Source of the DNA: Deltaproteobacteria bacterium RIFCSPLOWO2_12_FULL_60_19
Lineage (GTDB): Bacteria; Desulfobacterota; Binatia; UBA9968
NCBI GenBank assembly: GCA_001798595.1
Contig: MGSS01000014.1
Coordinates: 20,910-84,909 of the forward strand
DNA length: 64,000 nucleotides
Reading direction: 5' to 3'
This document shows, one piece after another, positions 722 to 40,760 of the stretch. The position numbers were made by a program, and so were the translations under genes. Positions within the stretch are counted from its first letter, which is position 1, and the number at the start of each line of letters is the position of its first letter. The notes under the pieces were generated by a model. It ran no database searches and had not been told where the DNA came from. It saw only the letters and a program-made list of their open reading frames with translations.

Positions 722-1507
722 TCAAATCCTCTGGAGTATCCCTTGCGTGTCGATCTCTTCCCGGATGAGTCTCAGCTCATTGTCGGTCGGCGGCTGCGTA
801 ACCCGAACGCTCTCGGCGCGGAGCAGCTCGAAGCCGGTGTTCTCGATGAGACTCGCTTGCGAAACGCCGGGATGGAGGCTTTGGAGTCTCATCCGCTTGC
901 TCGCGCCGTCGAAGTCCATTACCGCCAAATTGGTAACGACGAGGCTGGGGCCGTCGTCTTCCTTCAAGCCCGCGCGCGCCCGGCTTCCCGGCCCGTCGAG
1001 GTGGCCGACGCCGGAGATGAAATCGACCTTGTTCACGAAAACACGCGGGTTGTGCATCCGGGTGAAGATGAAAACCTTCTTGACCCGGCTGAGAAAAGGG
1101 AGACCGACGGAGCCGGGGCCGCGAAAGCGCGGCTTGGCGTAGTCGCCGACGCAGACGAGATTCAAATTGCCGTAGCGGTCGATCTGAATGCCACCGGCAA
1201 AAAAGAGGTCCACCTTTCCCGCCAATTCGTAGTCGTCCACTTCGTCGATCCCGATCACCGCCTCCGCCCCGCGTATGCCGCGGAAATCCGCCGTCGAAGG
1301 CGGCATGGGCTTCAGATGGGGATTGGCGGCGCCGATGCCGCCGAACAGCCAGGTGAAGTTGGGAGCGTGCGTCATCTGCGCCAGACGGCAGGCGATGGCC
1401 GCCTCGTAGGAGGCCGTGCCCACGACCGCCAGCCAGCCGTCCTCGATGTGGCGCGCCAACGTGACGGCGATCAGCTCAGGAATCGTGTAGGCTGCCGCTT
1501 TTTCCAT
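722..1507 (-). CDS. Family-I CoA-transferase, subunit B-like (glutaconate/3-oxoacid CoA-transferase beta)
   Basis: 261-aa ORF. Segments FFAGGIQIDRYGNLNL and VVTNLAVMDFD are typical of subunit B. It overlaps the upstream subunit A gene by 32 nt. Confidence 0.75.
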   Translation of the reverse strand: MEKAAAYTIPELIAVTLARHIEDGWLAVVGTASYEAAIACRLAQMTHAPNFTWLFGGIGAANPHLKPMPPSTADFRGIRGAEAVIGIDEVDDYELAGKVDLFFAGGIQIDRYGNLNLVCVGDYAKPRFRGPGSVGLPFLSRVKKVFIFTRMHNPRVFVNKVDFISGVGHLDGPGSRARAGLKEDDGPSLVVTNLAVMDFDGASKRMRLQSLHPGVSQASLIENTGFELLRAESVRVTQPPTDNELRLIREEIDTQGILQRI

Positions 1508-2399
1508 GGTCGATCCCTTGCGCGGGCAGGCCGCTTATTTTTCCCCGGCCGACCCTTTCGATGTACTGAGGGAAGTTCAGGCGCAGCACGAACTCTTCCA
1601 GATACCGGCGGAACCCTTCCTCGGTTGCGCTCTGCTTTAAATAGGCGCGCAGGTGCTCCTCGTCCCGCTCGTAGAGCGACGGGCTGCAGGTCGGATGGCA
1701 GCCGTAAGGGAGATGGACCACCGCGTCGACGATGAAGCCGGGGACGGATGTGAGTTGCGGCTCTTGCTGCGTGGCTTCGAGAGAGATCAGCTCGTCGCAA
1801 CTGACGATCACGCGCCGGCGCGCCGCCTTGGCCATCAGGCAATCGGTAAAACGGCTGCCGAGATGTCTCACGTTGCCGTAGGGGTCGCATTGGCCGGCGT
1901 GGATCACGGTCACGTCGGGATTGATCGCGGGCACGCAGAGGTGGCTCTTGCCGGTGCGCGGATCCTGGACGCGAAAATATTTGGGATTCAACCTTGCGCC
2001 GTCGAAGCCCTCCATTCCTTCCGCCAGCGGAAAAAACGGGCTGCCGGCGGCGCCGGCTTTAAGGCCGAAGACCACGTAGGCTTCGTCCGCGTCGAAAACT
2101 TCGATCTTCGCCGACTCCACGGCGCGGCGAAAGGCGGGCGCGAGGCCCAGATCTTCGAAGCCGATGTAAGAGCAGAGCACCTCGCGCGCGCAGCCCGCGC
2201 CGATCAGCAGGTCGGCTTGCAGGCCGGCGCCGGGCGAAAGAATCAAAGAGAGCTCTTTTTTCCCCTGGCGGACGATCTCGCGCGCCACTCCCATCGGCGC
2301 GCCGTAAAGTCCCAGACCGCCCAACGCGACGCTCGAGCCGGAGGCGATCAGCGCCACGGCCTGCTCGACGCTCAGAAGTTTCTCTTTTCGTTCAGCCAC
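1476..2399 (-). CDS. Family-I CoA-transferase, subunit A-like
   Basis: The track ORF 1476..2510 runs into the AT-rich repeat. I trimmed it to GTG at 2399, which is preceded by GGAG. The sequence VAERKEKLLSVEQAVALIASGSSVALGG...GAPMGVAREIVRQG is typical of alpha subunits. Confidence 0.75.
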   Translation of the reverse strand: MAERKEKLLSVEQAVALIASGSSVALGGLGLYGAPMGVAREIVRQGKKELSLILSPGAGLQADLLIGAGCAREVLCSYIGFEDLGLAPAFRRAVESAKIEVFDADEAYVVFGLKAGAAGSPFFPLAEGMEGFDGARLNPKYFRVQDPRTGKSHLCVPAINPDVTVIHAGQCDPYGNVRHLGSRFTDCLMAKAARRRVIVSCDELISLEATQQEPQLTSVPGFIVDAVVHLPYGCHPTCSPSLYERDEEHLRAYLKQSATEEGFRRYLEEFVLRLNFPQYIERVGRGKISGLPAQGIDHGKSGSLHDS

Positions 2400-2413
2400 G
2401 ATCAAGGAACTCC

Positions 2414-2525
2414 AATGCAAAATGCAAAATGAAAAATGAAAAATGAAAAATGAAAAAAAACAGGGAGGGCCGCGCTCTCTGTCCATTATTTTGACTTTTG
2501 CAATTTGCAATTTTCATTTTGCAAT
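2414..2525. repeat. AT-rich word-repeat palindrome, family 1 (TGCAAAATGAAAA type), copy a
   Basis: The left arm caatgcaaaatgcaaaatgaaaaatgaaaaatgaaaaatgaaaaaaaa is complementary to the right arm ttttgacttttgcaatttgcaattttcattttgcaatg. A GC-rich loop, cagggagggccgcgctctctgtcc, lies between them. Confidence 0.85.
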
Positions 2526-2539
2526 GTCTTCCCAGACGC

Positions 2540-3307
2540 TCAACAGGCGAGCTCGCCACCGTCCACCACCAGCACGTGGCCGGTGACGAAGCGCGCCGCC
2601 TCGGAGCAAAGAAAAACCAGCGCGCCTTTGATATCGTCGGGCTCGCCGAAGCGTCCCATCGGAATCGCGCCGAGCAGCTCCTCCCGCTTGTGCTCCACGA
2701 CCCAACTCGTCATTCTGGTCGGAAACCAGCCCGGAGCGATGGCGTTGACGTTGATTCGATATTTGGCCCACTTCACGGCCAGGTCTCGGGTGAGGGCGAT
2801 GAGCCCGCCTTTGCTCGCGCTGTATGAGACCGCGTCGATTTCCCTTGAGCCGGCAAGGCCGGCGATCGACACGACGTTGACGATTTTTCCTCCGCCTTGC
2901 CGGATCATCGCTTTGCCGGCTTGCTGGGCGAATAGAAACGCGCCGGTGAGATTCACTTCGATCACCTTGCGCCAGTCTTCCAGCGAGAGCTCCTCCGCCT
3001 TCGCGCCCCAGGTCTGGCCCGCGTTGTTGATGAGAATGTCAATGCGGCCGCTGATCTTTTTTGCTTCATCGACCACCCCTTCCACCTCGGCGGCGGAAGT
3101 AACGTCGCAGCGCCTGGCGTAAGTCTTCACGCCCAACCGCTCGATTTCCGCGGCCACCTGTTCGCACGCTTCCAGCTTGCGCGAGCAGAGCAACAGCGAA
3201 GCTCCGGCTTCAGCCAAGCCTCGCGCCATCTCTTCTCCCAGCCCGCGCGAGGCGCCGGTGACGACGGCGAACTTTCCCTTCAAGGAAAAAAGCTCCGGGA
3301 CGTTCAT
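2540..3307 (-). CDS. Short-chain dehydrogenase/reductase (SDR)
   Basis: 255 aa. It has the TGASRGLG cofactor motif, NNAG, and a YSASK catalytic Tyr-x3-Lys. A 4-nt overlap links it to the downstream gene. Confidence 0.85.
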   Translation of the reverse strand: MNVPELFSLKGKFAVVTGASRGLGEEMARGLAEAGASLLLCSRKLEACEQVAAEIERLGVKTYARRCDVTSAAEVEGVVDEAKKISGRIDILINNAGQTWGAKAEELSLEDWRKVIEVNLTGAFLFAQQAGKAMIRQGGGKIVNVVSIAGLAGSREIDAVSYSASKGGLIALTRDLAVKWAKYRINVNAIAPGWFPTRMTSWVVEHKREELLGAIPMGRFGEPDDIKGALVFLCSEAARFVTGHVLVVDGGELAC

Positions 3308-4176
3308 AGAGCTGGCTTTTTCTCTTTGCCCGAATAGTCGTAAAAGCCTCTGCCGGTTTTTCTTCCCAGATGGCCCGCCACGACCATCTGCCGCAGCAGG
3401 GGGCAGGGAAAATATTTCGGGTCGCCGTGGCCTTCGTAGAGAATCTCCAGGACGTTGACGATGGTGTCGATGCCCACCAGGTCGGCGAGCTCAAGCGGCC
3501 CCATCGGGTGGTTGAGCCCCAGGCGGTTCGCTTTGTCGATATCCTCGACGCTCCCGAGTCCCTGGTAGAGCGCGTAAACCCCCTCGTTGATCACCGGCAT
3601 ACCGATCCGGGTCGAAAGAAATCCCGGATAGTCCTTCGCCAGAATGGTTTCCTTGCCCATCGCTTGCGCAAGCTGCCGGATCGTCTCCACGGTTTCCTGC
3701 GAGGTGAGGTAGCCCTTGACGATCTCCACGAGCCGCATCACCGGCGCCGGGTTGAAGAAGTGCATGCCGACGACCTTTTCGGGCCGCTGCGTCGCGGATG
3801 CGATCTTGGTGATGGAGATGGAGGAGGTGTTGGAGGCGAAGATGGTGTGAGGAGGGCAGATCCCATCCAGCTTTTTAAAAGTGTCCTTTTTAATCTGCTC
3901 TTTCTCGACGACCGCCTCGATCACCGCGTCGGCGCTTGCGCCGGCGGAAAGATCGAGCGCCGGACGAATCCGCTCCAGGACCGCTCCCACCGTTTCTTGC
4001 AGCTTGCCTTTCTCTTGGGCTCGTTCGAGCTGTTTGGCGATGTTCTCCCGGCCCGCGGCGATGATCTTTTCCGATACGTCGCTCAACAAAACCTGAAAAC
4101 CGGCTTGGGCGGCGACCTGGGCGATGCCCGATCCCATTTGGCCCGCGCCGACGACGAAAATAGTTTTTACTTCCAT
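3304..4176 (-). CDS. 3-hydroxyacyl-CoA (3-hydroxybutyryl-CoA) dehydrogenase, NAD-binding
   Basis: MEVKTIFVVGAGQMGSGIAQVAAQAG Rossmann start. The length and C-terminal domain match the Hbd/PaaH type. I chose the start at the second Met (4176) because GGAGGGGG sits 5 nt upstream. The track ORF extends to 4194. Confidence 0.85.
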   Translation of the reverse strand: MEVKTIFVVGAGQMGSGIAQVAAQAGFQVLLSDVSEKIIAAGRENIAKQLERAQEKGKLQETVGAVLERIRPALDLSAGASADAVIEAVVEKEQIKKDTFKKLDGICPPHTIFASNTSSISITKIASATQRPEKVVGMHFFNPAPVMRLVEIVKGYLTSQETVETIRQLAQAMGKETILAKDYPGFLSTRIGMPVINEGVYALYQGLGSVEDIDKANRLGLNHPMGPLELADLVGIDTIVNVLEILYEGHGDPKYFPCPLLRQMVVAGHLGRKTGRGFYDYSGKEKKPAL

Positions 4177-4198
4177 TGCCCCCTCCAAAGTCATGAGT

Positions 4199-4272
4199 CA
4201 ATGCAAAGTGAAAAGTGCAAAGTGAAAAATGCAAAATTTTACACTTTGCACTTTGCAATTTTCATTTTGCAT
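4199..4272. repeat. AT-rich word-repeat palindrome, family 1, copy b
   Basis: caatgcaaagtgaaaagtgcaaagtgaaaaatgcaaaattttacactttgcactttgcaattttcattttgcattcg. The two arms are nearly perfectly complementary and the loop is small. Confidence 0.85.
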
Positions 4273-4281
4273 TCGTCACCG

Positions 4282-5421
4282 TCAGTCTTTCGGAAAAAGC
4301 ACCTCACGGCCGATGACCAGCCGCTGGATCTGATTGGTTCCCTCCACGATCTGCGTCACCTTGGCGTCGCGAAACATCCGCTCGAGGGGAAAGTCTTTGA
4401 GATAGCCGTAGCCGCCCAACACTTGCAGCGCGTTGGTGGCGACGGTCATGGCCGAGTCCGTCGCCAGGAGCTTGGCCATCGAAGAGAGCCGGTTCGCGTC
4501 CGGACTCTGTCGATCCGTTGCGTCGCACGCGTGGTAGAGCAGCTGCCGGCTCGCTTCCACCGCCGTGGCCATGTCGGCGAACATGAATTGCATCCCCTGG
4601 AACTCCGCGATCGCTTTGCCGAACTGTTTTCTTTCGCGCGCGTAGCGGGCGGCCACGTCGATGGCGCCCTGGGCCAAGCCGACGGCCATCGCGGCCACGC
4701 CGACCCTTCCTCTTTCGAGACACTTCATGGCGATCTTGAAACCGCTGTTCAGCTCGCCGAGGAGGCTCTCTTTGGGCACGCGGCAATCGTCGAACAGCAG
4801 TTGGGCCGTCGGCGAGCCGCTCATGCCGAGCTTTTTTTCCAGCCGGCCCACCGAGAGGCCGGGAGTCCCTTTTTCCACAAGAATGGCGCTGATGCCCTTG
4901 CGGCCGGCGGCCGGATCGGTTTTGCAGAGGACCGTGATCACGTCCGCCATGTGGCCCCAGGTGATAAACTGTTTCGAGCCGTTGATGACGTAGGTGTTGT
5001 CCCTAAGCTCCGCCCGGGTCTCTATGGACGAGACATCCGAGCCGGCGTTAGGCTCGGTCAACGCAAACGCCGCCAGCTTGTCGCCGCGCGCCAACGGGGG
5101 AAGATACTTTTGTTTTTGGGCCGGGCTGCCGCCGAGCAAAATGGGAGATGCCGCGAAATCCTGTTGGCTCAAAATGTTAGCGGAGTTGGCGCACTTGCGC
5201 GCGACCTCTTCCAGAATGCGGCAGAAAACCAGCGACCGAAGACCACCGCCGCCGTAATCTCCCGGCAGGTGGCAGCCGATCAGCCCGAGCTCTTTGAAGA
5301 GGCGGAACGATTCTTCGGGAAAGCGCTCCTCCCGGTCGACGGCCGCGGCGTTGGGCTCAATCTTCTCGCTTGCCACGCGCCGCACCAGATCGACGATGGC
5401 TTGCTCCTCGGATGTCAACAT
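4282..5421 (-). CDS. Acyl-CoA dehydrogenase (FAD)
   Basis: 379 aa. It shows typical ACAD architecture, including ALTEPNAGSD and the C-terminal QIVEGTNQIQRLVIGR motif. Confidence 0.9.
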   Translation of the reverse strand: MLTSEEQAIVDLVRRVASEKIEPNAAAVDREERFPEESFRLFKELGLIGCHLPGDYGGGGLRSLVFCRILEEVARKCANSANILSQQDFAASPILLGGSPAQKQKYLPPLARGDKLAAFALTEPNAGSDVSSIETRAELRDNTYVINGSKQFITWGHMADVITVLCKTDPAAGRKGISAILVEKGTPGLSVGRLEKKLGMSGSPTAQLLFDDCRVPKESLLGELNSGFKIAMKCLERGRVGVAAMAVGLAQGAIDVAARYARERKQFGKAIAEFQGMQFMFADMATAVEASRQLLYHACDATDRQSPDANRLSSMAKLLATDSAMTVATNALQVLGGYGYLKDFPLERMFRDAKVTQIVEGTNQIQRLVIGREVLFPKD

Positions 5422-5457: not shown

Positions 5458-5609
5458 GCCCGCCTGGAAATCTCTCTCCGGGTCGCTGCAAGCCCTTCGG
5501 GATCTCAGATTTCAAAACCCAAATTTCAGATTCAATTTGAGATCTGAGATTTGAGATTCCTCGCAAAGCGAGGATATGTCGGCCCTCCGAGAGATCCCCA
5601 GGCAGGCGG
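5458..5609. repeat. Nested palindromic element, family 2, copy a
   Basis: The outer arms are gcccgcctggaaatctctctccggg and ccctccgagagatccccaggcaggcgg. The inner hairpin is atctcagatttcaaa...tttgagatctgagatttgagat. It is about 96% identical to the copy at 7811-7964. Confidence 0.85.
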
Positions 5610-7810: not shown

Positions 7811-7964
7811 GTCCGCCTGCCTGCGAATCTCTCTCCGGGTCGATACAAGCCCTTCGGGATCTCAGATTTCAAATCCCAAATTTCAGATTCAATTTGAGAT
7901 CTGAGATTTGAGATTCCTCGCAAAGCGAGGATATGTCGCCCCTCCGAGAGACCCCCAGGGAGGC
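7811..7964. repeat. Nested palindromic element, family 2, copy b
   Basis: Direct-orientation copy of 5458-5609, with 5 mismatches over about 135 nt of core. Confidence 0.85.
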
Positions 7965-10089: not shown

Positions 10090-10187
10090 AAAACTCAACG
10101 AACCCAACCAACTCAACTAACTCAACGAACCCAACCAACTCAACCAACTCAACCAACTCAACTAACTCAACTAACTCAACTAACTCT
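10090..10187. repeat. Tandem 9-nt repeat (consensus ACTCAACYA, about 10 units) with a short complementary left arm
   Basis: actcaacga acccaacca actcaacta actcaacga acccaacca actcaacca actcaacca actcaacta actcaacta actcaacta. The upstream ttgagttggtt (10077-10087) is complementary to aaccaactcaa. Confidence 0.85.
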
Positions 10188-18250: not shown

Positions 18251-19129
18251 ATGAAGCCCGCTCAATTTGATTATTTCGCTCCCGCGAAAATTCGGGACGC
18301 CCTCGCGCTGCTTGAGGAGTACAAGGACGAGGCCAAGATTTTGGCCGGCGGCCAAAGCCTCATGCCTCTGCTCAACATGCGTCTCGCCCGCCCGCGGGCG
18401 CTGATCGATATCAACCGCATCACGAGCCATTCCTACATCCGCCGGGAGAACAGCGTCCTCGCCATCGGCGCTCTAACCCGCCACCGGGAGATCGAGACAT
18501 CGCCGCTCGTGCGGCAGAAGTGCCCAGTGCTAGCCGAGGCGGTCCGGTGGATCGGCTATCCGCAGATTCGCAATCGGGGCACGATGGGAGGCTCCCTGGC
18601 GCATGCCCATCCCGCGGCCGAGCTGCCGGCGGTGGTGACCGCGCTTAGAGGAGAACTCAGGGTCATCGGCCCGGCGGGGGAGCGGACGGTAAAAGCGGAA
18701 GAGTTCTTTCAAGGATTTTTCACCGTGGCGCTTGAGCCGAACGAGATCTTGAGCGAAGTGCGTCTAGCGCTCTGGCCGAAGAACGCGGGATTCTCGTTTA
18801 AAGAAATCAACCGGCGCCACGGCGACTTCGCCATCGCCGGCGTCGCCGCTCTGATCTCGCTCAACGAGAGGAAAGAGTGCGCCGAGAGCAGCATCGTTCT
18901 GGCGGGAGTGAATCCGACGCCGCTGCGCGCGAAGCGATCGGAGAAGTTGCTCAAGGGGCGGAAAATCACTCGGGACATCATTGAAACAGCGGCGGCGCTG
19001 GCCGCGGAGGACTCCGATCCGCCGTCGGACGTGCACGGCTCGGCCGACTACCGGCGCGAGCTGGTCAAGGTCATCGTCCGAAGGGCGCTGGAAGAGGCGG
19101 GAGCAAGAGCAATGCAAAATGAAAAGTGA
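18251..19129 (+). CDS. Molybdenum hydroxylase (xanthine dehydrogenase/CoxM family) FAD-binding medium subunit
   Basis: 292 aa with the ILAGGQSLMPLLNMRL and RNRGTMGGSLAHA motifs. The last 5 codons (MQNEK) and the stop lie inside a family-1 repeat. Confidence 0.85.
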   Translation: MKPAQFDYFAPAKIRDALALLEEYKDEAKILAGGQSLMPLLNMRLARPRALIDINRITSHSYIRRENSVLAIGALTRHREIETSPLVRQKCPVLAEAVRWIGYPQIRNRGTMGGSLAHAHPAAELPAVVTALRGELRVIGPAGERTVKAEEFFQGFFTVALEPNEILSEVRLALWPKNAGFSFKEINRRHGDFAIAGVAALISLNERKECAESSIVLAGVNPTPLRAKRSEKLLKGRKITRDIIETAAALAAEDSDPPSDVHGSADYRRELVKVIVRRALEEAGARAMQNEK

Positions 19130-19189
19130 AAAATGCAAAATGAAGACTAAAAATTTACGCTTTGCCTTTTGCAATCTGCAATTTGCATT
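19110..19189. repeat. AT-rich word-repeat palindrome, family 1, copy c
   Basis: caatgcaaaatgaaaagtgaaaaatgcaaaatgaag...cgctttgccttttgcaatctgcaatttgcattg. Confidence 0.85.
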
Positions 19190-19207
19190 GGTGGGGGGTT
19201 TGTAGCC

Positions 19208-19702
19208 ATGGCGCGCATGTATCCGATCAAGCTGACGGTGAATGGGATCGAGTATGAGAGAACCGTCGAGGCGCGCAAGCTTTTAGCGGATTTTCTGCGC
19301 GACGACTTGGAGCTTACCGGCACGCACGTCGGGTGCGAGCATGGAGCCTGCGGCGCCTGCACGGTCATCATGAACGGCCAAACGGCGCAGTCTTGTCTCA
19401 TGCTCGCCGTTCAAGCGGACGGCGCGGAGATTCTGACCGTCGAGGGGCTGGCCGACGGCGCGGGGCTCCATCCGATCCAGCAGGCTTTTCTCGACTGCCA
19501 CGCCCTCCAGTGCGGCTTCTGCACGCCCGGCGTCCTGCTCTCCGCCCACGCGCTGTTGCAGGAAAACTCCCATCCGACGGAAGAGGAGATTCGTCAAGGG
19601 ATATCCGGCCATATCTGCCGCTGCACCGGGTATGTGAATATCGTGAAGGCGATCCAGGCCGCGGCGGAGAAGACGGCGGTGGCGCCGCTCAATGCAAAAT
19701 GA
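19208..19702 (+). CDS. Molybdenum hydroxylase small subunit, two [2Fe-2S] clusters (CoxS type)
   Basis: GCEHGACGACTV, CGFCTPG and CRCTGY motifs. I chose the start at ATG 19208 (MARMYPIKLTVNG). The last 3 codons and the stop lie inside a family-1 repeat. Confidence 0.9.
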   Translation: MARMYPIKLTVNGIEYERTVEARKLLADFLRDDLELTGTHVGCEHGACGACTVIMNGQTAQSCLMLAVQADGAEILTVEGLADGAGLHPIQQAFLDCHALQCGFCTPGVLLSAHALLQENSHPTEEEIRQGISGHICRCTGYVNIVKAIQAAAEKTAVAPLNAK

Positions 19703-19795
19703 AAAATGAAAGGTTCAAAGTGAAAAGTGAAGACGCCATGCATCCGAGGAGCTTGAGAATTTTGCAATTTGCACTTTGCAATTTTCATTTTGCAA
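19690..19795. repeat. AT-rich word-repeat palindrome, family 1, copy d
   Basis: caatgcaaaatgaaaaatgaaaggttcaaagtgaaaagtgaag ... gagaattttgcaatttgcactttgcaattttcattttgcaat. Confidence 0.85.
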
Positions 19796-20847
19796 TACGG
19801 ATTACTTTGTGGGCGCTTCTCCTGATTCCCGCGCCGGCACGGGCTCAACAGAACGCCGAGGAGCTGCTGTCCCAGCTTAACAAACTGCCTGCGGCCGAGC
19901 GCCGGCAGAAGCTGCTCGACGGCGCGAAGCAGGATCGGGAGGTCTCGGTCTACGCGAGCTTCACCGAAGCCAACACTCTCGGCAACGCCTTCCGCAAGCA
20001 GCATCCTTCCGTAGCGGTAAATATCCGGCGGCTCGGCGGGGGACGCTTGCTGGACATCACGGTCACGGAGTTCCGGGCGGGAAAGCATCTGGTGGACGTT
20101 TTTATCGGCGGCTCGACCTCGGGCCGGCCGCTCGTCGAGGCGGGAGTGATCGGCCGCTATGTTTCGCCCGAGCGGGCGTTCTTGGATGCGCATCTCAAAG
20201 ACGAAAAGGGCTACTGGACCGCCTTCTTTTCGCGCCACCTGGTTTTTGCCTACAACACGACGCTGGTCCCGGCGGCCAGGCTGCCGAAAACCTACTTCGA
20301 TCTCCTCGATCCCTACTGGAAAGGAAAGCTCGCCATCGACGATCATCCGGGCAACTGGCTGGCCGGCATGGTGAAGGCGTACGGCAAAGAAAAGGCCACG
20401 GAGCTGCTGCAAGGGGTGGTTAGACAGGCGCCCAAGATCATTCGCGGCCGCACGCTCAAGGGGCAACTGCTCGCCGCCGGCGAATTTCACGCAGCCGTGG
20501 ACCAGACCGAGGAGAGCGTGATCGAGATCAAGAAGAAGGGCGCGCCGGTGGACTATGCCCTGCTGGAAAATACGCCGGTGCTGACCAATCCGGTGCTGCT
20601 GGCGAAGAATGCGCCGCATCCGTATGCGGCGGCGCTGTTCGTGGATTACCTCCTTTCGAGCGCGGGCCAGCAGGCGGTCGTGGATATCGACTACGTGCCG
20701 ACGCGCCAGGGGTTCAAGCCCAAAAACCAGGAGCTGGCCGCGCGGGCCGCCAAGGCCAAACTGGTCTTCTTCGACCTCGACTGGTTCGGCGAGCGGCAGA
20801 AGGAGATCAACGATTTGATCAAGGAGAATCTCAGGCCGCATCGGTAA
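19738..20847 (+). CDS. Exported ABC solute-binding protein, family-1 / Fe(III)-polyamine type (S1)
   Basis: The mature part, AQQNAEELLSQLNKLPAAERRQKLLDGAKQDREVSVYAS, is a paralog of four other SBPs in the window. The start is uncertain. ATG 19738 would make part of the signal peptide (LRILQFALCNFHFAI) repeat-encoded. Confidence 0.75.
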   Translation: MHPRSLRILQFALCNFHFAIRITLWALLLIPAPARAQQNAEELLSQLNKLPAAERRQKLLDGAKQDREVSVYASFTEANTLGNAFRKQHPSVAVNIRRLGGGRLLDITVTEFRAGKHLVDVFIGGSTSGRPLVEAGVIGRYVSPERAFLDAHLKDEKGYWTAFFSRHLVFAYNTTLVPAARLPKTYFDLLDPYWKGKLAIDDHPGNWLAGMVKAYGKEKATELLQGVVRQAPKIIRGRTLKGQLLAAGEFHAAVDQTEESVIEIKKKGAPVDYALLENTPVLTNPVLLAKNAPHPYAAALFVDYLLSSAGQQAVVDIDYVPTRQGFKPKNQELAARAAKAKLVFFDLDWFGERQKEINDLIKENLRPHR

Positions 20848-20915
20848 GTCATTTGTTCAAGTTGTTCAAAAGGTTCAAGTGGTTCAAAAACACTGTGAAC
20901 TCGAACAGTGAAAGG
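20848..20915. repeat. Word-repeat element (GTTCAA words) with a short palindrome
   Basis: gtcatttgttcaagttgttcaaaaggttcaagtggttcaaaaacactgtgaactcgaacagtg. Confidence 0.6.
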
Positions 20916-22006: not shown

Positions 22007-22078
22007 GGAATAACGTGAGAGCGTAAGGCGTGAGGCGTTAGGCGATCCCCTCACCCCTCACGCCTGACCCCTTACGGC
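22003..22078. repeat. GC-rich word-repeat hairpin (GTGAGGCG words)
   Basis: gtgaggaataacgtgagagcgtaaggcgtgaggcgttaggcgatcccctcacccctcacgcctgaccccttacggc. Confidence 0.75.
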
Positions 22079-22092: not shown

Positions 22093-24537
22093 ATGGCTGT
22101 CGCAGAAACTGACGTTCGCGCTCATGCCCGGTGGTTCGGCACGCCGGTTAAGCGCAAGGAAGATCCGAGGCTGCTGACCGGCCGGGGGCATTACGTGGCT
22201 GATATCAGTCTGCCGCGCACGGTTCACTGCGCCTTGCTCCGCAGCCCTCACGCCCACGCGCGAATTCACCGCATCGACGTGAGCAAGGCCCAAGCGCTCC
22301 CCGGCGTCGTCCTGACGCTCACGGGAGAAGAGCTGGCTCAAGCGACCAACCCGCTCCCTTCGGTTTTCAGTCTCGGCAACAAGCCGGCGCCCTTTCTCGA
22401 CTATCCGATGGCGGTTAAGAAAGTCCGCTACGCCGGCGAGCCGGTGGCGGCGGTCGTGGCGACGGATCGTTACTTGGCCGAAGACGCGCTCGAATTGATC
22501 GACGTCGAGTATGAGCCTCTCCCGGCGGTGACCGATGTCGAGGAGGCGACTCGCCCCGGCGCGCCGCTGCTGTTCGAAGAGATGGGCACGAACGTCACCT
22601 GGCATGGAACTTTTCCCTATGGCGAGGTGGAGCGCGCCTTTCGAGAGGCCGACCGGATCGTCAAGCGACGGCTCTACTTTCACCGCTACAGCTCGACGCC
22701 GATGGAGACCTTCGGCGGGATCGCGAGCTACGACCCGCCGAGTCAGTTACTCACGATCTATTCCAACCTCCAGATTCCCGCCATGCTGCATCCTTTCATG
22801 AGCTACAGCTTGAAGATTCCCGGCAACCGGTTGCGGCAGGTGACCGGCGACATCGGCGGGGGATTCGGCATCAAGTGCGCCGTCTATGCCAACATGATCA
22901 TTCTGGGCGTGCTCTCGATGCGTCTCGGCCGGCCGGTCAAGTGGATCGAGGACCGGCACGAGCACCTGTTGGGCAGCGCGCACGGCACGGAGCGCGCCGC
23001 TTACGTGGAAGCCGCGGTCAAGAACGACGGCACGTTCCTCGGCGTGAAGATCAAGAGCTACGACAACGACGGCGGATACATGAGATTTCCCGAGCCGGTC
23101 GGCGTGATCCTCTGGTCCCACGTGGTCCAGGGCTGCTACCGATTCCGCGACATCCTGATGGACTGTTACGCGGTGGTGACGAACAAATGCCCGGTGACGC
23201 CCAATCGCGGCTACGGCCGCATGCAGCACCAGTTCTTTCTCGAAAGAATGATGAACATCGTCGCGCGCGAGCTGGGGCAGGATCCGGTGGAGATCCGGCT
23301 CAAGAATTTCATCCGGCCCGGCGAGTTTCCCTACGAGGCGACCAACGGGAGCGTTTACGACAGCGGCGATTATGCCGAGGCGCTCAAGCAGGCGCTCGAG
23401 CGGATCGGCGGCTATGAGCATTGGCGGGCGGAGCAGAAGAAGGCGAGAGCGGAGGGGCGCTACATCGGGATCGGCGTCGCGACGATCATGGATCCGGGCG
23501 CGTCGAATTTGGGCGAGATGAGCATGATCGACCCCGACATCCGCTCCTCAACGGCGGGCGAGGCGGCGACGATCAAGATCGACGCCACGGGCGCGGTGAC
23601 GGTGGCGCTCGGTTCGGTGCCGCAGGGGCAGGGGCATGAAACCACGAGCGCGCAGATCGTCGCCGACGAGTTGGGAGTGAGCGTCGATGAGGTCGTGGTC
23701 TTGACCGGCTTCGACACGGCGACGCATCCCTACTGCGGCAGCTCGGGAACCTATGCCAGCCGCTACGCCGGCACGGCCACCGGCGCGCTCAAAGGGGCGG
23801 CGCAGAAACTGAGAGAGAGAATATTCAAGATCGCCGCTCAATTCTTGGAAGCAAGACAGGAGGATTTGGAGCTGGCGGAAGGAAAAGTATTTGTCCGCGG
23901 GGCGCCGCAGCGGGGGATGGCCTTGCGCGATATCGCCGGGATCGCGCTCTACAATCCGGCGGCGCTGCCCGAAGGGGTGGAGCCGGGCCTGGAGGCGACT
24001 TGCAATTACAACTTTCCCCTGGCGAACCAGATGGACGCAAAGTTCCGCGCCAACTACGCCTCGACCTACGCCAACGCGGCGCACGCCGTCGCCATCGAGG
24101 TCGATGTGGAAACGGGAGAGGTCAAGATCCTCAAGTACGCCGTGGTCCACGACGCGGGGAATTTAATCAATCCGAGCATCGCCGACGGCCAGATCCACGG
24201 CGGCGTGGCCCACAGCCTCGGCGCCGCGCTTTACGAAGAGTTCGCTTACGACGAAAACGGCCAGCTCCTGACCTCCAGCTTCATGGACTACCTTTGCCCC
24301 AAGGCGACCGACGTGCCGCCGATGTCGGTCGGCCATCTGTGCAGCCCCTCGCCGTTCACCCCGTACGGCGTCAAAGGGATGGGCGAAGGGAGCGGGCCGA
24401 TTCCTGCGCTGCTCGGCAACGCGATCGAAGATGCTCTGGCGCCGTTGGGCGTCGAAGTGGACGGGTCGCACTTCAGCCCGCAGAACGTGATGGCGATGAT
24501 TTGGAAGGCTAAAGGAAAGCGTGTCGACACGCAGTAG
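22093..24537 (+). CDS. Molybdenum hydroxylase large (molybdopterin-binding) subunit, xanthine dehydrogenase/aldehyde oxidase/CoxL family
   Basis: 814 aa with a typical N-terminus, GTPVKRKEDPRLLTGRGHYVADI...LRSPHAHARI. No AYxCSFR motif of true CO dehydrogenases is seen. Confidence 0.9.
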   Translation: MAVAETDVRAHARWFGTPVKRKEDPRLLTGRGHYVADISLPRTVHCALLRSPHAHARIHRIDVSKAQALPGVVLTLTGEELAQATNPLPSVFSLGNKPAPFLDYPMAVKKVRYAGEPVAAVVATDRYLAEDALELIDVEYEPLPAVTDVEEATRPGAPLLFEEMGTNVTWHGTFPYGEVERAFREADRIVKRRLYFHRYSSTPMETFGGIASYDPPSQLLTIYSNLQIPAMLHPFMSYSLKIPGNRLRQVTGDIGGGFGIKCAVYANMIILGVLSMRLGRPVKWIEDRHEHLLGSAHGTERAAYVEAAVKNDGTFLGVKIKSYDNDGGYMRFPEPVGVILWSHVVQGCYRFRDILMDCYAVVTNKCPVTPNRGYGRMQHQFFLERMMNIVARELGQDPVEIRLKNFIRPGEFPYEATNGSVYDSGDYAEALKQALERIGGYEHWRAEQKKARAEGRYIGIGVATIMDPGASNLGEMSMIDPDIRSSTAGEAATIKIDATGAVTVALGSVPQGQGHETTSAQIVADELGVSVDEVVVLTGFDTATHPYCGSSGTYASRYAGTATGALKGAAQKLRERIFKIAAQFLEARQEDLELAEGKVFVRGAPQRGMALRDIAGIALYNPAALPEGVEPGLEATCNYNFPLANQMDAKFRANYASTYANAAHAVAIEVDVETGEVKILKYAVVHDAGNLINPSIADGQIHGGVAHSLGAALYEEFAYDENGQLLTSSFMDYLCPKATDVPPMSVGHLCSPSPFTPYGVKGMGEGSGPIPALLGNAIEDALAPLGVEVDGSHFSPQNVMAMIWKAKGKRVDTQ

Positions 24538-24580
24538 CTTAGAAGAAGAGACGTAGAGTCTCTGGAAAGTTGGAGGTGAT

Positions 24581-25675
24581 ATGATGAGCCCATTTCTTTG
24601 CCGAATTCTCTTCAGCCTGCTTATTTTCTTTGCTTGCTCGGGGACCCTCTGGGCGCAGGCCGACAAAGCGCCGGTCGTGGGCCTTTCCACGCAGCCGTGG
24701 ATCTCGTCCGAAGGCAAGCTTCTCTCAACCAAAGGAGGCGGTGTCCAGGGCAAGTTCACAAGTTATCCGATGCCCGTGCCGGCGGCGATTCCTCACTGCA
24801 TAGCGATCGACCAGAAGGGAATTATCTGGGCCGGTCTCGTGGGGAGCAACCGGATCGGAAAGTTCGATCCCAAAACGGGTCTCTTCAAACATTACCTGGT
24901 CCCGACGCCGGACAGCCGGCCGCACGGCATTACGGTCGCCGGAGATGGCAAGATCTGGTTCACCTCCGAGCAGGATCTCCGCCGCAAGGTAGGACGGTTC
25001 GATCCGGATACCGAGTTGTTCATCGAAATCCAAGTCCCAGGCGTAGGCGACGCAGACGTCAGGCCCCACACTCCTATTTTCGGCCCGGGCGGGTACGTCT
25101 GGTTTACAATGGAGGACGGCATCGGCAGGATCGATCCGAAGAGCCTCGAGGCCAAAGCCTTTCCTGTCCCTACTAAAAACTCGCGGCCCTATGGAATCAC
25201 CGTCGGGCTTGACGGGATGATCTACTTTGCCGAGTGGCGGGGTCACAAAATCGGCAGGCTCAATCCCAAAACGGGTGAAGTGAGGGAGTACGATCCTCCC
25301 ACACCCAAATCGGGAACGCGCCGGATCACCACCGCTCCCGACGGCATCATCTGGGTCAGCGAATACATCGCCCACAATCTCGCTCGCCTGGATCCAAAAA
25401 GCGGAGAGATCAAAGAATATAAAATGCCTTCTGCGCCCAACTCTGCTCCTTACGGGATCGTGGCTACCCCGGATGGGATGATCTGGGTTTCCGAACAGTT
25501 CTCCAACCTGATTACGAAGTTCGATCCTAAGACCGAAAAGTTTACTTCTTACCCGGTTCCCTGGGACGAGTCGGGGCTACGCATCCCCTCCAGCGTGCGC
25601 AACATGCTCACGGATCGTGAGGGCAAAATTTGGTACGGGGACAATCGCAACAGCCGAATTACCAAAGTAGAGTGA
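24581..25675 (+). CDS. Secreted beta-propeller protein, streptogramin (virginiamycin B) lyase Vgb-like repeats
   Basis: The signal peptide is MMSPFLCRILFSLLIFFACSGTLWA. It has about 7 repeats of the pattern P.GI....DG.IWF.E....IGR.DPKTGE...Y (COG4257-like). Confidence 0.7.
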   Translation: MMSPFLCRILFSLLIFFACSGTLWAQADKAPVVGLSTQPWISSEGKLLSTKGGGVQGKFTSYPMPVPAAIPHCIAIDQKGIIWAGLVGSNRIGKFDPKTGLFKHYLVPTPDSRPHGITVAGDGKIWFTSEQDLRRKVGRFDPDTELFIEIQVPGVGDADVRPHTPIFGPGGYVWFTMEDGIGRIDPKSLEAKAFPVPTKNSRPYGITVGLDGMIYFAEWRGHKIGRLNPKTGEVREYDPPTPKSGTRRITTAPDGIIWVSEYIAHNLARLDPKSGEIKEYKMPSAPNSAPYGIVATPDGMIWVSEQFSNLITKFDPKTEKFTSYPVPWDESGLRIPSSVRNMLTDREGKIWYGDNRNSRITKVE

Positions 25676-25688
25676 AGGAGGGCCGATC

Positions 25689-26339
25689 ATGAAGACGTCC
25701 GGCAAAGAATACGCGCAGCCGCGAAGGTTCTTCTTGCGCATCCTGCTGTCTATTCCCATCGCAGCTTTTTTCCGGGATACGATTTTTGCCGTCTTAAAAG
25801 TATTGGGAGTGCCGGCGCCGGAGAGCGGGATCGCCTACGGCGCGCCTCAGCCGGTAGCCAGGCTCTCGCAGCTCTCTAAACCCTGGTCGGCGGTCCATTT
25901 TTCGTATCCCATCGTGATGAAAGACCTGGAAGGGGAACGAGAGGCCAAGGTGCCCGGTGTCGTCATTCGCTTGCCCGACGAGCAGGCGAAGGCCGCCGCG
26001 CAACAGGGAGTGAGCGGGATCAAAGGGAATTTCTATGCTCCCGTGCTCCTCTGCCCGCACGAAAAGTGCGTCATCTTCTATCGGGAGGACCGGAGAGAAT
26101 TGGAAAGGGAGTTGGGAGTCGAAGCGCGCACGCCGATGATCTCCTGCCCCTGCCACCAGTCCGTCTTCGATCTTTCCCAGAACGGGAGACCGGTCAAGGG
26201 CCCGGTCAGGCGCCGGCCCTGGTTCTTCGAGTTTGACATCGCGGGAGACGAAGTCGTGGTGAGCGGAGTAGAGAAAGGCTCCCTTACCTGGGGCAGGGCT
26301 ACGCGCGTTGGAGGAGAGGAAGAGCGACGGGCGCGATGA
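25689..26339 (+). CDS. Rieske [2Fe-2S] protein with a twin-arginine signal
   Basis: The Rieske boxes are CPHEKC and CPCHQSVF. The N-terminal QPRRFFLRILLSIPIAAFF resembles a Tat motif. Confidence 0.8.
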   Translation: MKTSGKEYAQPRRFFLRILLSIPIAAFFRDTIFAVLKVLGVPAPESGIAYGAPQPVARLSQLSKPWSAVHFSYPIVMKDLEGEREAKVPGVVIRLPDEQAKAAAQQGVSGIKGNFYAPVLLCPHEKCVIFYREDRRELERELGVEARTPMISCPCHQSVFDLSQNGRPVKGPVRRRPWFFEFDIAGDEVVVSGVEKGSLTWGRATRVGGEEERRAR

Positions 26340-26851
26340 GACAGCAAAAGTTCGAGGGGATCGTCTCTATGCCAGGCCCTGTAGAGCTTGGCCGCCGTCT
26401 TTTTTGTAAATGGTTGGCCTGGTTCTCTTTTGCCGGGGCGACTGTGCCTTTCTTTGCCCGAGCTGCTTCTGGAGCCGGAGCGGATCGCGTGGTGGTCGCT
26501 ACCACTGAGGAGTTGGCCTCAGCTTGGTCCTTTAGGGAGTTTACGTTCACCAAGGAGATTGAGAGCCGCGGTTTGCGCGCCGCAAGCGAGTTCCCTGGAA
26601 TAGCTATTCGCTTGCCCGACGGCTCATTCTATGTGGCCAGTCTGGTGTGTCCTCACGAGGGTTGCCTGATTGAGTTTGAAGAGCCGTTGCTCACTTGCCC
26701 ATGCCATCGGAGCGCTTTTGATCCCGTTCAAGACGGGAAGGTGCTTTCCGGCTCTGCGCCGCGTCCCCCTTGGAAGTTCAACTTCATCATCGAAAAAGGA
26801 AAGATCGTAGTGCATGGCTTAGAACCCGGGGCTGAGATGCGGGTGAGGTGA
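26336..26851 (+). CDS. Rieske [2Fe-2S] protein with a twin-arginine-like signal (second copy)
   Basis: CPHEGC and CPCHRSAF boxes, with LGRRLFCKWLAWFSFAGATVPFFARA near the N-terminus. ATG 26336 overlaps the previous stop (ATGA). ATG 26369 is an alternative start. Confidence 0.8.
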   Translation: MRQQKFEGIVSMPGPVELGRRLFCKWLAWFSFAGATVPFFARAASGAGADRVVVATTEELASAWSFREFTFTKEIESRGLRAASEFPGIAIRLPDGSFYVASLVCPHEGCLIEFEEPLLTCPCHRSAFDPVQDGKVLSGSAPRPPWKFNFIIEKGKIVVHGLEPGAEMRVR

Positions 26852-26935
26852 GGCGCTCTTTTGGCGTGAAATGGATCTGATCTGGAAAGCCAGGGGTAAG
26901 CACGTCAATCGATGAACGAGTAACGATTAACGAAG

Positions 26936-30838: not shown

Positions 30839-30880
30839 GGGGAAAAGAAAGCGAGAATAGAGGATCGAGGATTGCGAGCG

Positions 30881-30979
30881 GCAAGCCGCCGCCCGCTCTC
30901 CGAGCCTGCGCAATGGGTAGCTACTTAATCCCACCGGCAGTATCGGATGCGCAGGCTCTACGACCGGGCAGCGGCTTGC
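30881..30979. repeat. 99-nt structured palindromic element, family 3, copy a (candidate cis-acting RNA or REP)
   Basis: gcaagccgccgcccgctctccgagcctgcgcaatgggtagctacttaatcccaccggcagtatcggatgcgcaggctctacgaccgggcagcggcttgc. It is colinear with 42871-42969. Confidence 0.8.
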
Positions 30980-31072
30980 CGAGCGAGGCGAGGGGCGCGG
31001 CTTCTCGCCGGAATGACGAAAACGGGTTGGCGAAGCTGTCCACGAGTTCTTGATACGGACTGAAGGAAAGTC

Positions 31073-39305: not shown

Positions 39306-40760
39306 ATGGCCTATCCAGATTTGCGCGCTTGGATAGCAGAGCTTGAGAGGCACGGCGAGCTGGCGCGCGTGCGCCGCGAGGTGGATTGGAATCTCGAGAT
39401 TGGGGCGATCACGCGCAGGATCTGTGAGACCCAGGGGCCGGCGCCGCTGTTTGAGACGGTCAAAGGTTATCCAGGCTGCCGTATCCTCGGCGCTCCTGTT
39501 GCCATGAGTAAAAAACACCGCTATGGCCGCTTGGCGTTGAGCCTGGGGCTTCCCGTGGATTCCTCCTTCAGGGAGATTTTTGAATTTTACCTCGCAAGAA
39601 GGAAAAACCGCATTGCTCCGATAGAGGTCTCCGCGGGTAGCTGCCAGGAAAACGTTATCCTGGGCGCCGACGACGTCGACCTTTTCAAACTCCCCGCTCC
39701 TTATATTCATGACGGGGATGGTGGGCGCTATCTGGGGACGTGGCATGTGGTCATCTCTCGAAACCTGCGGGGCGACTGGACCAACTACGGCATGTATCGG
39801 CTCATGATCCATGATCGTCGCCATCTGGGAATCAATCTGGGCCTCCTTCAGCACCTCTACTTGCAATACCAAGAATACGCGGAGCAGAACCGCCCCATGG
39901 AGTTCGCCGCGGCCATCGGCGTCGAGCCTGTAACGGCATTGATCGGGGCGACTTCCGTCGGAGAAGGGGTGAACGAAGCAGAAGTTATCGGCGGCGTGCG
40001 GGGCGAGCCTTTGGAAGTGGTGCGCTGTAAGACCGTTGACCTGTGCGTGCCGGCGACGGCGGAAATCGTGATCGAGGGAACTATCGATCCCAGAGAGCGT
40101 AAGGACGAGGGGCCTTTCGGCGAGTACGTGGGCTATCGCGCCGGCGGCAAGAATCCCCGGCCCGTCCTGAAGGTCCAGGCTATTACCCATCGGAACAACC
40201 CCATCCTTCCGATGTGCGCGCTCGGCACGCCGATCGACGACGTTCACACTCTTCACTCTGTCCTTGAAGCGGCAGAGGTTTTTGAGGAGCTTCGTGACTC
40301 CAAAGGTTTCCCGGTCGAGTGCGTCTATCCCGTGCCGGAGGCCGCCGGCCACCTTTGGGCGGTCTCTACCGATGTCCCCGACAAGACTTATCCCCGCCGT
40401 CTGGCGATGGCGCTCTGGGCGATGAAGGGAGGGCGCTACGCGGATTATCTTGTGCTGGTCAATAAAGACGTGGATGTGACCGATCTAAGAGAGCTTCTAT
40501 GGGCGATGGCCACGCGGGCCCACCCGGTGCGCGATCTCTGGCCGGTGGAGCATCTCTACAGCACGCTGCTTGTCCCTTGGCTCACGCCCGAGGAGCGAAA
40601 GACGGGAGACGGGGCCCACGTTCTCATCGATGCCACCTGGCCGGCGGACTGGCCGAAAGATTGGATCCCGGAGGTTTCCTCTTTCAAGACGATGTGGCCC
40701 GAAGAAGTTCAGCGGAAGGTGCTTCAAAACTGGCGGGAAGATGGCCTTGGAAACCCTTGA
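39306..40760 (+). CDS. UbiD-family decarboxylase/carboxylase, paralog U6 (subfamily A)
   Basis: 484 aa with GGRYLGTWH, NYGMYR, QHLY and DEGPFGEYVGY. Confidence 0.9.
   Translation: MAYPDLRAWIAELERHGELARVRREVDWNLEIGAITRRICETQGPAPLFETVKGYPGCRILGAPVAMSKKHRYGRLALSLGLPVDSSFREIFEFYLARRKNRIAPIEVSAGSCQENVILGADDVDLFKLPAPYIHDGDGGRYLGTWHVVISRNLRGDWTNYGMYRLMIHDRRHLGINLGLLQHLYLQYQEYAEQNRPMEFAAAIGVEPVTALIGATSVGEGVNEAEVIGGVRGEPLEVVRCKTVDLCVPATAEIVIEGTIDPRERKDEGPFGEYVGYRAGGKNPRPVLKVQAITHRNNPILPMCALGTPIDDVHTLHSVLEAAEVFEELRDSKGFPVECVYPVPEAAGHLWAVSTDVPDKTYPRRLAMALWAMKGGRYADYLVLVNKDVDVTDLRELLWAMATRAHPVRDLWPVEHLYSTLLVPWLTPEERKTGDGAHVLIDATWPADWPKDWIPEVSSFKTMWPEEVQRKVLQNWREDGLGNP

Follow-up and report, generated by a model that had tools for sequence, protein, structure and literature searches.

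A 64,000-nt stretch of the genome of Deltaproteobacteria bacterium RIFCSPLOWO2_12_FULL_60_19 (contig MGSS01000014.1, positions 20,910 to 84,909; hereafter the window, by which the whole stretch is meant) contains five AT-rich palindromes, E1 to E5 (Table 1), which belong to a sequence-conserved repeat family found at many unrelated loci in several lineages. The repeat has reshaped at least three genes at their ends, providing the stop codons and C-terminal tails of two and, probably, the start codon of one, and comparison of orthologous sites indicates that a gene junction can acquire a copy, lose it or have it replaced. The reading we favour, with a probability of about 0.45, is that the elements are dispersed, non-autonomous palindromic DNA repeats of the kind represented by REPINs (doublets of repetitive extragenic palindromes, REPs) and transposable elements of the miniature inverted-repeat type (MITEs), and that they form an RNA hairpin between cistrons. 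A role in RNA stability or processing is possible. The family is apparently undescribed in Rfam and in the searchable literature.

A dispersed family of heptamer-built palindromes

With up to one mismatch allowed, the head motif CAATGCAAARTG has 12 matches in the window, where 0.35 ± 0.61 are expected and none of 100 shuffles reaches 12, and all of these matches lie within the five elements. E1 to E5 are palindromes of 76–135 nt, each beginning CAATGCAAA(A/G)TG, and with a GC content of 0.32–0.37, against 0.56–0.64 in the window, they are the most AT-rich islands there, typical values being about 0.33 for the elements and 0.60 for the window. A first-pass annotation, made from the sequence alone, had reported five AT-rich elements with a common head, placed inside operons on both strands, and both the motif enrichment and the co-directional gene contexts confirm it. 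What it called degenerate words are indeed repeated words, now refined to tandem heptamers: Tandem Repeats Finder assigns a period of 7 to every arm, with 3.0–6.3 copies and 75–97% matches, and in register the arms read xTGyAAA about five times. The inverted arms, 30–39 nt long, 74–90% complementary and 0–73 nt apart, are terminal inverted repeats such as MITEs possess. A single arm is a tandem heptamer run that is not self-complementary, and the palindrome exists only at the level of the whole element. The five copies nearly fill the short spacers between co-directional genes of catabolic operons, and the 10 proteins adjoining them are metabolic enzymes and binding proteins. E2, for instance, lies 7 nt past the stop codon of the acyl-CoA dehydrogenase gene and about 22 nt ahead of the start of the 3-hydroxyacyl-CoA dehydrogenase gene, while the GGAG of the CoA-transferase gene downstream of E1 directly adjoins that element.

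The left arm follows the consensus CAATGCAAAATGAAAATTGCAAA(A/G)TG(T/C)AAAAGTCAAAAT and the right arm the consensus ATTTTGCATTTTTCAATTTGCACTTTGCATTTTGCATTG, which consistently departs from the exact complement of the left. E5, which matches the family consensus best, and E1 read in reverse complement each deviate from that consensus at 2 of 39 nt, and the two elements share about 20 nt of their centres (GTCrAAATAAyrGACAGAGA). The exact 23-mer head CAATGCAAAATGAAAATTGCAAA is present in 78 metagenome contigs, most of which continue alike and carry the same, unequal right arm, and the order of the variant heptamer units is fixed across loci and taxa. Because the arms are unequal in a fixed way, the element has a polarity, which can be read in E1, E4 and E5 and is ambiguous in E2 and E3 (Table 1). 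In the five window copies and in an alignment of 21 copies (A1), the elements start with CAATG or GAATG and end with CATTG or CATTC. Their centres (0 to ~66 nt) have ordinary GC content, are mostly unrelated between copies and are unstructured on their own, with GACAGAGA-type centre starts shared by E1, E5 and a few metagenome copies. The strict consensus (at most 2 mismatches in 39) was found only in the window and in metagenome-assembled genomes (MAGs) labelled Syntrophobacteraceae, Binatia or 'Deltaproteobacteria'. A sub-family of low GC content (0.44–0.51) was seen in metagenome loci L139, L143, L145, L147, L169, L170, L188, L192, L202 and L206, where the same 23-nt head is followed by other words (TTAGCAA/TTATCAA ... 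TTGCTAA/TTGATAA). It always stands between the same conserved flanks, upstream of a ATGGAAGAGTTCGTGAAAGGGGG gene, and looks like one orthologous locus in related organisms.

The looser pattern CAATGCAAARTGMAAANTGMAA occurs in at least 115 stretches of a species-representative genome collection. Among the matches listed, (TGCAAAA)n palindromes of this type span more than 20 phyla, archaea included. The bacterial ones include stretches from Planctomycetota, Acidobacteriota, Chloroflexota, Nitrospirota, Nitrospinota, 'Deltaproteobacteria'/Desulfobacterota, Binatia, Zixibacteria, Bacteroidota, Clostridia, one cyanobacterium and candidate phyla, and the archaeal ones stretches from Methanophagales/ANME-1 and Methanomicrobia. 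Many show the same layout of head, arm, centre and arm, and copies from planctomycetes, Nitrospirae and archaea again contain the inner motif GCAAAAGTCAA. In several copies from planctomycetes the arm order is reversed, so that the CAATG heads face a centre of 12–26 nt, and these inward heads led us to reject the outer CAATG as a fixed transposon terminus. The scan covered the TGCAAAA word only, and some of the distant matches may be convergent simple repeats rather than relatives, since the same loci are rich in period-7 arrays of many words: in 819 kb of MAG loci, 412 arrays, built from 139 different words, have a period of 7, and periods of 6 and 8 account for 42 and 50 arrays. The pattern was met in only 2 viral contigs, and blastn with the low-complexity filter on returned no plasmid or phage relative. 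The TGCAAAA repeat word had no match in a full-text literature search and is absent from a 2026 preprint on intergenic features. Rfam gave 0 matches in the whole window at gathering thresholds, its E-value mode adding only sub-threshold matches to generic miRNA hairpins.

The position of the elements relative to genes is equally regular. Among 27 complete metagenome copies with both flanks callable (crude gene calls, by frame and GC3), 24 lie between co-directional genes, 9 of them in sense and 15 in antisense orientation, 3 lie between convergent genes and none between divergent ones; the last count has P ~0.002 if, as is typical and was assumed here, divergent spacers make up about one-fifth of all. 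Of 34 incoming-gene stop codons, 27 precede the element by 1–33 nt and about 5–7 fall within it, at a depth of 13 or 27 nt, so that the two stop-supplying copies among the five of the window are typical of the family. An orientation tied to transcription, which would point to an RNA polarity, was rejected on the 9 sense and 15 antisense copies and on E4, which is antisense. Integron attC sites were rejected as well: the neighbouring genes belong to syntenic metabolic operons, and inspection revealed no RYYYAAC/GTTRRRY core sites.

Gene ends and orthologous junctions

The coxM C-terminus reads ...ARA-MQNEK-TGA, with the codons for M-Q-N-E-K (19112–19126) and the stop (19127–19129) inside E3. 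Ten coxM orthologues form two groups, one of 292 residues ending A(R/K)AMQN(E/A)K and one of 288 residues ending ...ARAK, ...ARTK or ...ARAE. Since the 288-residue orthologues, which lack the element, have these ends, the coxM tail is element-derived. In the comparison with element-free orthologues, of the kind that the first-pass annotation had proposed, coxM ends in ...ARAK or ...ARAE and its product is 4 residues shorter. The coxS product ends LNAK, with the codons for N-A-K (19691–19699) and the TGA (19700–19702) inside E4; its orthologues end differently (...GAENR*, ...MARE* and ...GTVENV*), and in two relatives the tail GTV(Q/E)NV-stop comes from another repeat, a GTTCAAAAC-type palindrome. 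Orthologues without the element therefore bear out the earlier statement that the repeat supplies the last codons and stops of coxM (MQNEK) and coxS (LNAK).

Gene starts appear to be affected too. The GTG at 40895–40897, which forms the last three bases of E5, is probably the start codon of the NMT1-like protein, because a normal signal peptide (MRAVLPLLLILLCFSSALA|QEK) results only from this start. For the solute-binding protein (SBP) gene behind E4, the public gene call starts at ATG 19699, within the left arm of the element. A start at ATG 19738 is plausible, with a segment of the signal peptide encoded by the repeat. The right arm of E4 shares the reading frame of the gene and would place LRILQFALCNFHFAI before a hydrophobic core of normal kind. 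The orthologues have unrelated signal peptides of 21–22 residues.

The window is at least 99.8% identical to contigs from several metagenomes, including scaffold_276 of ENA ERZ28563660, and among the named genomes of the collection the nearest to it is a MAG from groundwater labelled 'Deltaproteobacteria bacterium' (JACPSE010000119), syntenic with window 725–5418 at 65–80% amino-acid identity. At the coxM–coxS junction, the TGCAAAA element is present in the window, in a 91% relative (L013) and in a clade at 66–67% (L131 and L132). L129 and L130, which form a sister of this clade (89% to the L131 protein), have instead another heptamer palindrome (CGTGATT.../...ACGAGC) exactly after the TAA, differing from each other by 13 nt in its unit number, and a 70% relative (L012) has a 16-nt spacer only. 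The distribution of the coxM tail on the orthologue protein tree is patchy. The copies in the window and in L131 share the peculiar right end TTTTGCAATCTKCAATTTGCRTTG and are thus orthologous and old, which implies repeated loss or replacement. At the coxS–SBP junction, three repeat types occur in three lineages. A GTAAGGC-related array stands in for E4 at the coxS end of L013 (1623–1650), and the GTTCAAAAC word forms a palindrome at the coxS end in L129 (6930–6990) and L132 (1625–1690).

In the MAG locus L083, the TGCAAAA palindrome is kept at the E2 site, and the site of a second heptamer palindrome family (family 2, described below) is empty. The E1 site of this locus (3502–3532) is occupied by a non-palindromic, purine-rich AGTGAGC array of 4.3 copies, which extends from the stop codon to the next start and resembles repeated Shine-Dalgarno-like GGAG/GAGG motifs. 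Presence, absence or replacement at orthologous sites, a polymorphism characteristic of MITEs, is hence seen both at coxM–coxS and at E1. Where copies are retained, E2 is 85% identical between lineages, against 72–77% in the flanking coding DNA, and E3 is identical to its L131 counterpart at 59 of 68 aligned bases, apart from a 13-nt indel, against 71–73% in the flanks; across 11 strain-level contigs, E3 and E4 do not vary in length. To judge from these alignments, the conservation of E2 and E3 above that of their coding flanks points to constraint or concerted evolution.

The replacement of one heptamer palindrome by another raises the question of whether such arrays are simple repeats grown in place, by slippage from chance seeds at gene ends and subsequent intramolecular template switching, with neither mobility nor function. 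The dominance of period 7 (412 arrays versus 42 and 50) agrees with the published heptamer excess (PMC4679880, PMC4692102), and slippage would also account for the other-word palindromes at the same junctions in relatives, the 13-nt difference in unit number between L129 and L130 and a period-9 array whose copy number varies between strains; moreover, the ancestral coxM end (A-K-stop) could read GCAAAGTGA, similar to the repeat word. Such growth cannot, however, yield the same ordered variant units, the same inner AAAAGTCAAAAT and the same differing right arm at dozens of unrelated loci, and the centre sequence common to E1 and E5, the 63/64 identity of family-2 copies at two loci and the constant length of E3 and E4 among the strain-level contigs also speak against it. 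We regard this origin as quite unlikely.

Folding, relation to known repeats and possible function

The RNA hairpins predicted for E1 to E5 have energies of -18 to -42 kcal/mol (-33 to -35 kcal/mol for E2). The folding of each copy that the first-pass annotation had suggested, set here against dinucleotide shuffles, gave a mixed outcome. E2 (z of -6.5/-7.8) and E5 (-3.4/-4.1) have a clear advantage; for E1 (-2.4/-1.9) and E4 (-1.6/-2.6) it is marginal, and for E3 (-1.3/-1.6) it does not reach significance. That annotation had also held that the arms co-vary within copies, so that structure rather than primary sequence would be selected. The arms are complementary within each copy, as it stated, but not more so than between copies: in a 5 x 5 test, pairing of each copy with its own arm reached a trace of 131 versus a permutation mean of 134.8, with 89% of permutations equal or better, and the left arm of E1 pairs at 34 of 37 positions with the right arm of E5 versus 28 of 37 with its own. 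Alignment A1, whose 21 copies from the window, MAGs and metagenomes were picked for consensus similarity and are therefore limited in variation, has 78.9% of its cells paired and shows no covariation, the measures being at or below those of shuffled controls and 494 of 500 shuffles reaching the observed percentage paired. Six mismatched positions are kept in 15–20 of the 21 copies, the opposite of what structural selection predicts; it is the primary sequence, mismatches included, that is conserved. For about 33 MAG copies, a test of own against cross-copy arms likewise gave no covariation that we accept, since its permutation p of 0.0012 is inflated by the choice of these copies on their own-arm score and was discounted. 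The claim of selection for structure is contradicted by both the 5 x 5 test and the 21-copy alignment.

Three further structural ideas were discarded. Nested palindromes in the centres were rejected on a mean fold z of ~0 over 23 centres. A bidirectional intrinsic terminator was rejected because terminator-like sites in the window number 24 and 13 versus 21.4 and 10.7 in shuffles; an intrinsic terminator is a short GC-rich stem-loop with a T run, whereas the elements have AT-rich stems of 30–39 bp, and the one weak terminator-like match lies in the centre of E1. A 'three-frame stop cassette' was dropped as a general property: TGAAAAA units give a TGA every 7 nt, but the consensus left arm leaves one frame free of stops.

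These results bear directly on the possibility that the element is a cis-regulatory hairpin selected by the host, working between cistrons as RNA (or as cruciform DNA) and dispersed only secondarily. It might then be a processing site for RNase III or the degradosome, a 3'-end stabiliser, a translational decoupler or a platform for a single-strand RNA binder. The conservation of retained copies above coding DNA would suit such a role, as would their tight placement 1–33 nt past stops and just ahead of Shine-Dalgarno sequences, their absence from divergent (promoter-only) spacers, the stability of the predicted hairpins and the fact that either orientation yields an A-rich 5' arm and a U-rich 3' arm in RNA. 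Selection on a hairpin is, however, difficult to reconcile with the lack of compensatory changes and the conserved mismatches, with folds of E3 and, beyond a marginal difference, E4 that are no better than those of shuffles, with close relatives whose same junction has no element or a palindrome of unrelated words, and with the absence of an Rfam match. On balance, a primarily host-selected hairpin seems unlikely.

Among known repeats, REPs and REPINs are palindromic, bear GTAG or CGTC tags, lie after open reading frames (ORFs) between unidirectional or convergent genes and are thought to be moved by REP-associated tyrosine transposases, RAYTs (PMC3733652, PMC3116915, PMC3337134). The elements resemble them as short, non-coding palindromic repeats with many copies per genome, in which two inverted halves around a spacer form a long hairpin, and in lying downstream of ORFs in unidirectional or convergent spacers (24 and 3, with 0 divergent, of 27), where they are transcribed in operons and sometimes overlap gene ends. 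Unlike REPs, they have no GTAG/CGTC tag (Di Nocera 2013, PMC3733652) at either end of the five copies or of the 21-copy alignment, and each half is a run of five heptamers, while the REP unit is itself an imperfect palindrome of 20–40 bp. They are also AT-rich in a GC-rich genome, and no RAYT was identified, only the 10 element-adjacent proteins having been examined in the window. REP families are mostly species- or genus-specific, whereas relatives of the present elements are found across many phyla and in archaea.

Bacterial MITEs (Correia, ERIC and Nezha-type) are comparable in several respects: the elements measure 76–135 nt, have terminal inverted repeats and no ORF, are intergenic and differ in presence between relatives, and MITEs can likewise be co-transcribed, fold into hairpins and fuse with gene ends. 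The present elements differ in having no target-site duplication, interiors that are mostly unrelated between copies and arms of period 7, and no parent insertion sequence was found in ~1.4 Mb of loci. Heptanucleotide repeats form a third group for comparison. As cited in two later papers, they outnumber every other class of long simple repeat in many prokaryotes, an excess ascribed to polymerase slippage (Mrazek 2007, via PMC4679880 and PMC4692102); the TAACTGA repeats of Beggiatoaceae stand just upstream of start codons (PMC4679880), and the GGGAATC/GGGGATT repeats of Xanthomonas and Nostoc sometimes form inverted pairs (PMC4692102). Like these and the cyanobacterial STRR sequences, the elements consist of tandem 7-nt units in intergenic positions near gene starts or ends, with a scattered phylogeny. 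They differ in the fixed order of variant units, the defined head (CAATG) and the defined inner end (AAAAGTCAAAAT), and they are nearly always paired with a specific, non-identical inverted arm, so that they make up a sequence family rather than free-running arrays. Free change in unit number, typical of heptanucleotide repeats, was not seen, although the 13-nt indel between the window and L131 shows some change.

The REP/MITE-like mobile palindrome, which the first-pass annotation had named as an alternative, is the best fit to elements that are dispersed, located in transcribed spacers, present in both orientations, patchy among orthologues and conserved in sequence. Under this reading, copies would spread or be homogenised by a transposition-like process or by gene conversion, through a hypothetical enzyme, and their 7-nt substructure would stem from unit duplication by slippage, matching the heptamer bias of prokaryotic simple repeats. 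Transcribed spacers immediately following stop codons would be the only places where an element is tolerated, and its transcript would fold into an imperfect, A-U-rich hairpin of 30–39 bp, which could act as an intercistronic REP or RNase III site, either as a barrier to 3' exonucleases or as a processing site that uncouples neighbouring cistrons. An effect on the relative expression of the cistrons would be likely, since double-stranded RNA of 30–39 bp is a substrate of RNase III, 3' hairpins stop exonucleases, and hairpins within about 15 nt of a stop codon reportedly interfere with termination, as Liang, Rudd and Deutscher are said to have described in 2015. The early region of phage T7 has intercistronic hairpins of this kind, at which RNase III processes a polycistronic mRNA. 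These are long and imperfect, with mismatches, and offer a functional analogy only, having no sequence relation to the present elements and not being dispersed repeats.

Several observations weigh against mobile repeats of the REPIN or MITE kind. Target-site duplications are lacking at the five window copies and about 35 metagenome copies, only E5 having TGAGA on both sides, and neither a transposase nor an arm pair enclosing an ORF, as in an autonomous parent, was found in the ~1.4 Mb of loci. The centres are unrelated in most copies, whereas MITEs normally share their interior. The copies in the window are ~20% divergent from one another, so that none is demonstrably recent, and those at coxM–coxS and E2 are old and orthologous, a sign that they have persisted, not that they have moved. 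Selfish spread explains conservation above that of coding DNA no better than host function or concerted evolution does. In addition, the presence of (TGCAAAA)n palindromes in more than 20 phyla and in archaea, among the matches listed, is to our knowledge a far wider range than that of any REP or MITE family, and the planctomycete copies have the opposite arm order.

This range and the two arm orders could instead reflect a dedicated, widespread system. Heptamers might be added from a template at both 3' ends of a break, leaving inverted arms around filler DNA, or the arrays might be sites for a conserved single-strand nucleic-acid binder with a footprint of 6–7 nt (cold-shock domain, S1 or Sm/Hfq). 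Such a system would account for inverted arms that enclose unrelated, unstructured centres of normal GC content, for heads that point outward here and inward in planctomycetes, for a 7-nt unit common to many word families and for a distribution over two domains. U-rich heptamers, furthermore, resemble known ligands of Sm/Hfq and of cold-shock proteins (Csp). S1, Csp and CsrA were proposed by MacGregor as binders of the TAACTGA heptamers (PMC4679880). Against this stand the left and right arms, which are consistently not the exact complements that a single template would give, the GC-rich word families, which cannot bind the same protein, the lack of a known linked gene and the wholly inferential character of the scheme, and we consider it very improbable. 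More broadly, heptamer-word palindromes might be the footprint or a working part of an undescribed system common to many bacterial and archaeal phyla, as opposed to ordinary selfish repeats, be it an enzyme adding templated 7-nt arrays at DNA ends or hairpin apices or a binder with a footprint of about 7 nt that serves as an operon-internal control after stops; even taken together, these versions are highly doubtful.

If the family is what it appears to be, a conserved, undescribed palindromic repeat is carried by a large group of little-studied bacteria from the environment and by some archaea, one that would join the unexplained heptanucleotide-repeat excess of prokaryotes with the REP/MITE-type palindromes, two subjects usually treated apart. 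The repeat misleads gene callers because it creates C-terminal tails, stops, starts and possibly signal-peptide segments, and it breaks metagenome assemblies. It also marks operon junctions at which differential expression could be tested directly, and its placement 1–33 nt past stops, together with conservation above that of coding DNA, makes it a testable case for a role at the RNA level. We rate its interest as moderate to good, on account of the conserved asymmetric sequence, the coupling to stop codons, the remodelled gene ends and the unusually wide distribution.

Feature coordinates and other repeats

Table 1. Palindromes E1 to E5 and other repeats of the window; orientation refers to the strand matching the family consensus.
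Feature	Position in window	Orientation	Architecture	Neighbouring genes
E1	2413-2526	minus; sense to its operon	arms ~2413-2460 and 2486-2526; GC-rich centre of 25-36 nt	SDR gene 2540-3307 (-) / CoA-transferase gene 1476-2399 (-)
E2	4199-4274	ambiguous	near-perfect palindrome of 37+37 nt, no loop, 86% complementary	minus strand: acyl-CoA dehydrogenase (stop 4282-4284) / 3-hydroxyacyl-CoA dehydrogenase (ATG 4176-4174)
E3	19110-19190	ambiguous	arms 19110-19139 and 19161-19190, 80% complementary	plus strand: coxM / coxS; E3 followed by GTGGGGGGTTTGTAGCC, then coxS ATG at 19208
E4	19690-19798	minus; antisense to its operon	arms ~19690-19731 and 19761-19798; ATG 19738 in centre	plus strand: coxS / SBP
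E5	40763-40897	plus; sense	arms 40763-40801 and 40859-40897; GC-rich centre of 50-66 nt	plus strand: UbiD-family gene (stop 40758-40760) / NMT1-like binding protein; starts 2 nt past UbiD stop
Family 2, first copy	5499-5562		heptamer palindrome ATCTCAG/ATTTCAA ... TTGAGAT/CTGAGAT	co-directional, minus strand: hypothetical / acyl-CoA dehydrogenase
Family 2, second copy	7856-7919		as first copy	co-directional, minus strand: HGD-D / HGD-D
Period-9 array	10092-10186		AACTCAACC x 10.6	between two minus-strand genes
Period-9 words	20855-20889		GTTCAAG/GTTCAAAAC	between the two SBP genes
GC-rich heptamer palindrome	22014-22076		GTAAGGC GTGAGGC GTTAGGC / CCCCTCA CCCCTCA CGCCTGA	second SBP gene / coxL
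Lone array	26910-26933		CGATTAA x 3.4	directly upstream of permease gene at 26936
GC-rich inverted repeat	30879-30981		arms of 33-34 nt	
GC-rich inverted repeat	42870-42970		arms of 33-34 nt	
GC-rich inverted repeat	58657-58792		arms of 33-34 nt	
Period-8 array	61050-61090		GGTTAAAG	ahead of gene at 61084
Heptamer palindrome	62296-62405		TTTTCGA/TTTTAGA-type, T-rich arm first; arms 88-95% complementary, 53-61 nt apart	between two plus-strand genes

The two family-2 copies are identical at 63 of 64 positions, and the identity runs into their flanks (CCCTTCGGGATCTCAG...GATTCCTCGCAAAG); together with the same architecture, this is as expected of recent copying. As the GC-rich palindrome at 22014–22076 shows, the 7-nt architecture does not require AT-rich words. 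The period-9 array has different copy numbers in the window and in scaffold_276 (L001/L009), which is identical otherwise; the difference amounts to about 30 nt and is a case of strain-level slippage.

The dispersed GC-rich inverted repeat has arms of the form …GCCGCC(R)CCCGCTCTCCGAGCCYGCGCA / TGCGCRGGCTCT…GGCRGCGGC…, and its copies at 30879–30981 and 42870–42970 share a 35-nt centre (AATGGGTAGCTRCTTAATCCCACCGG..GTATCGGA). Rfam does not match it, and it may represent a structured RNA or a further family of repeats. Two further differences between strains were noted. One contig (L002) is without about 2.4 kb of the window (24506–26871), comprising three genes (SGL/Vgb-lyase-like, hypothetical and Rieske). 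Within the same region, scaffold_276 has a 26-nt indel at 25999–26036, and one contig ends exactly at 25999.

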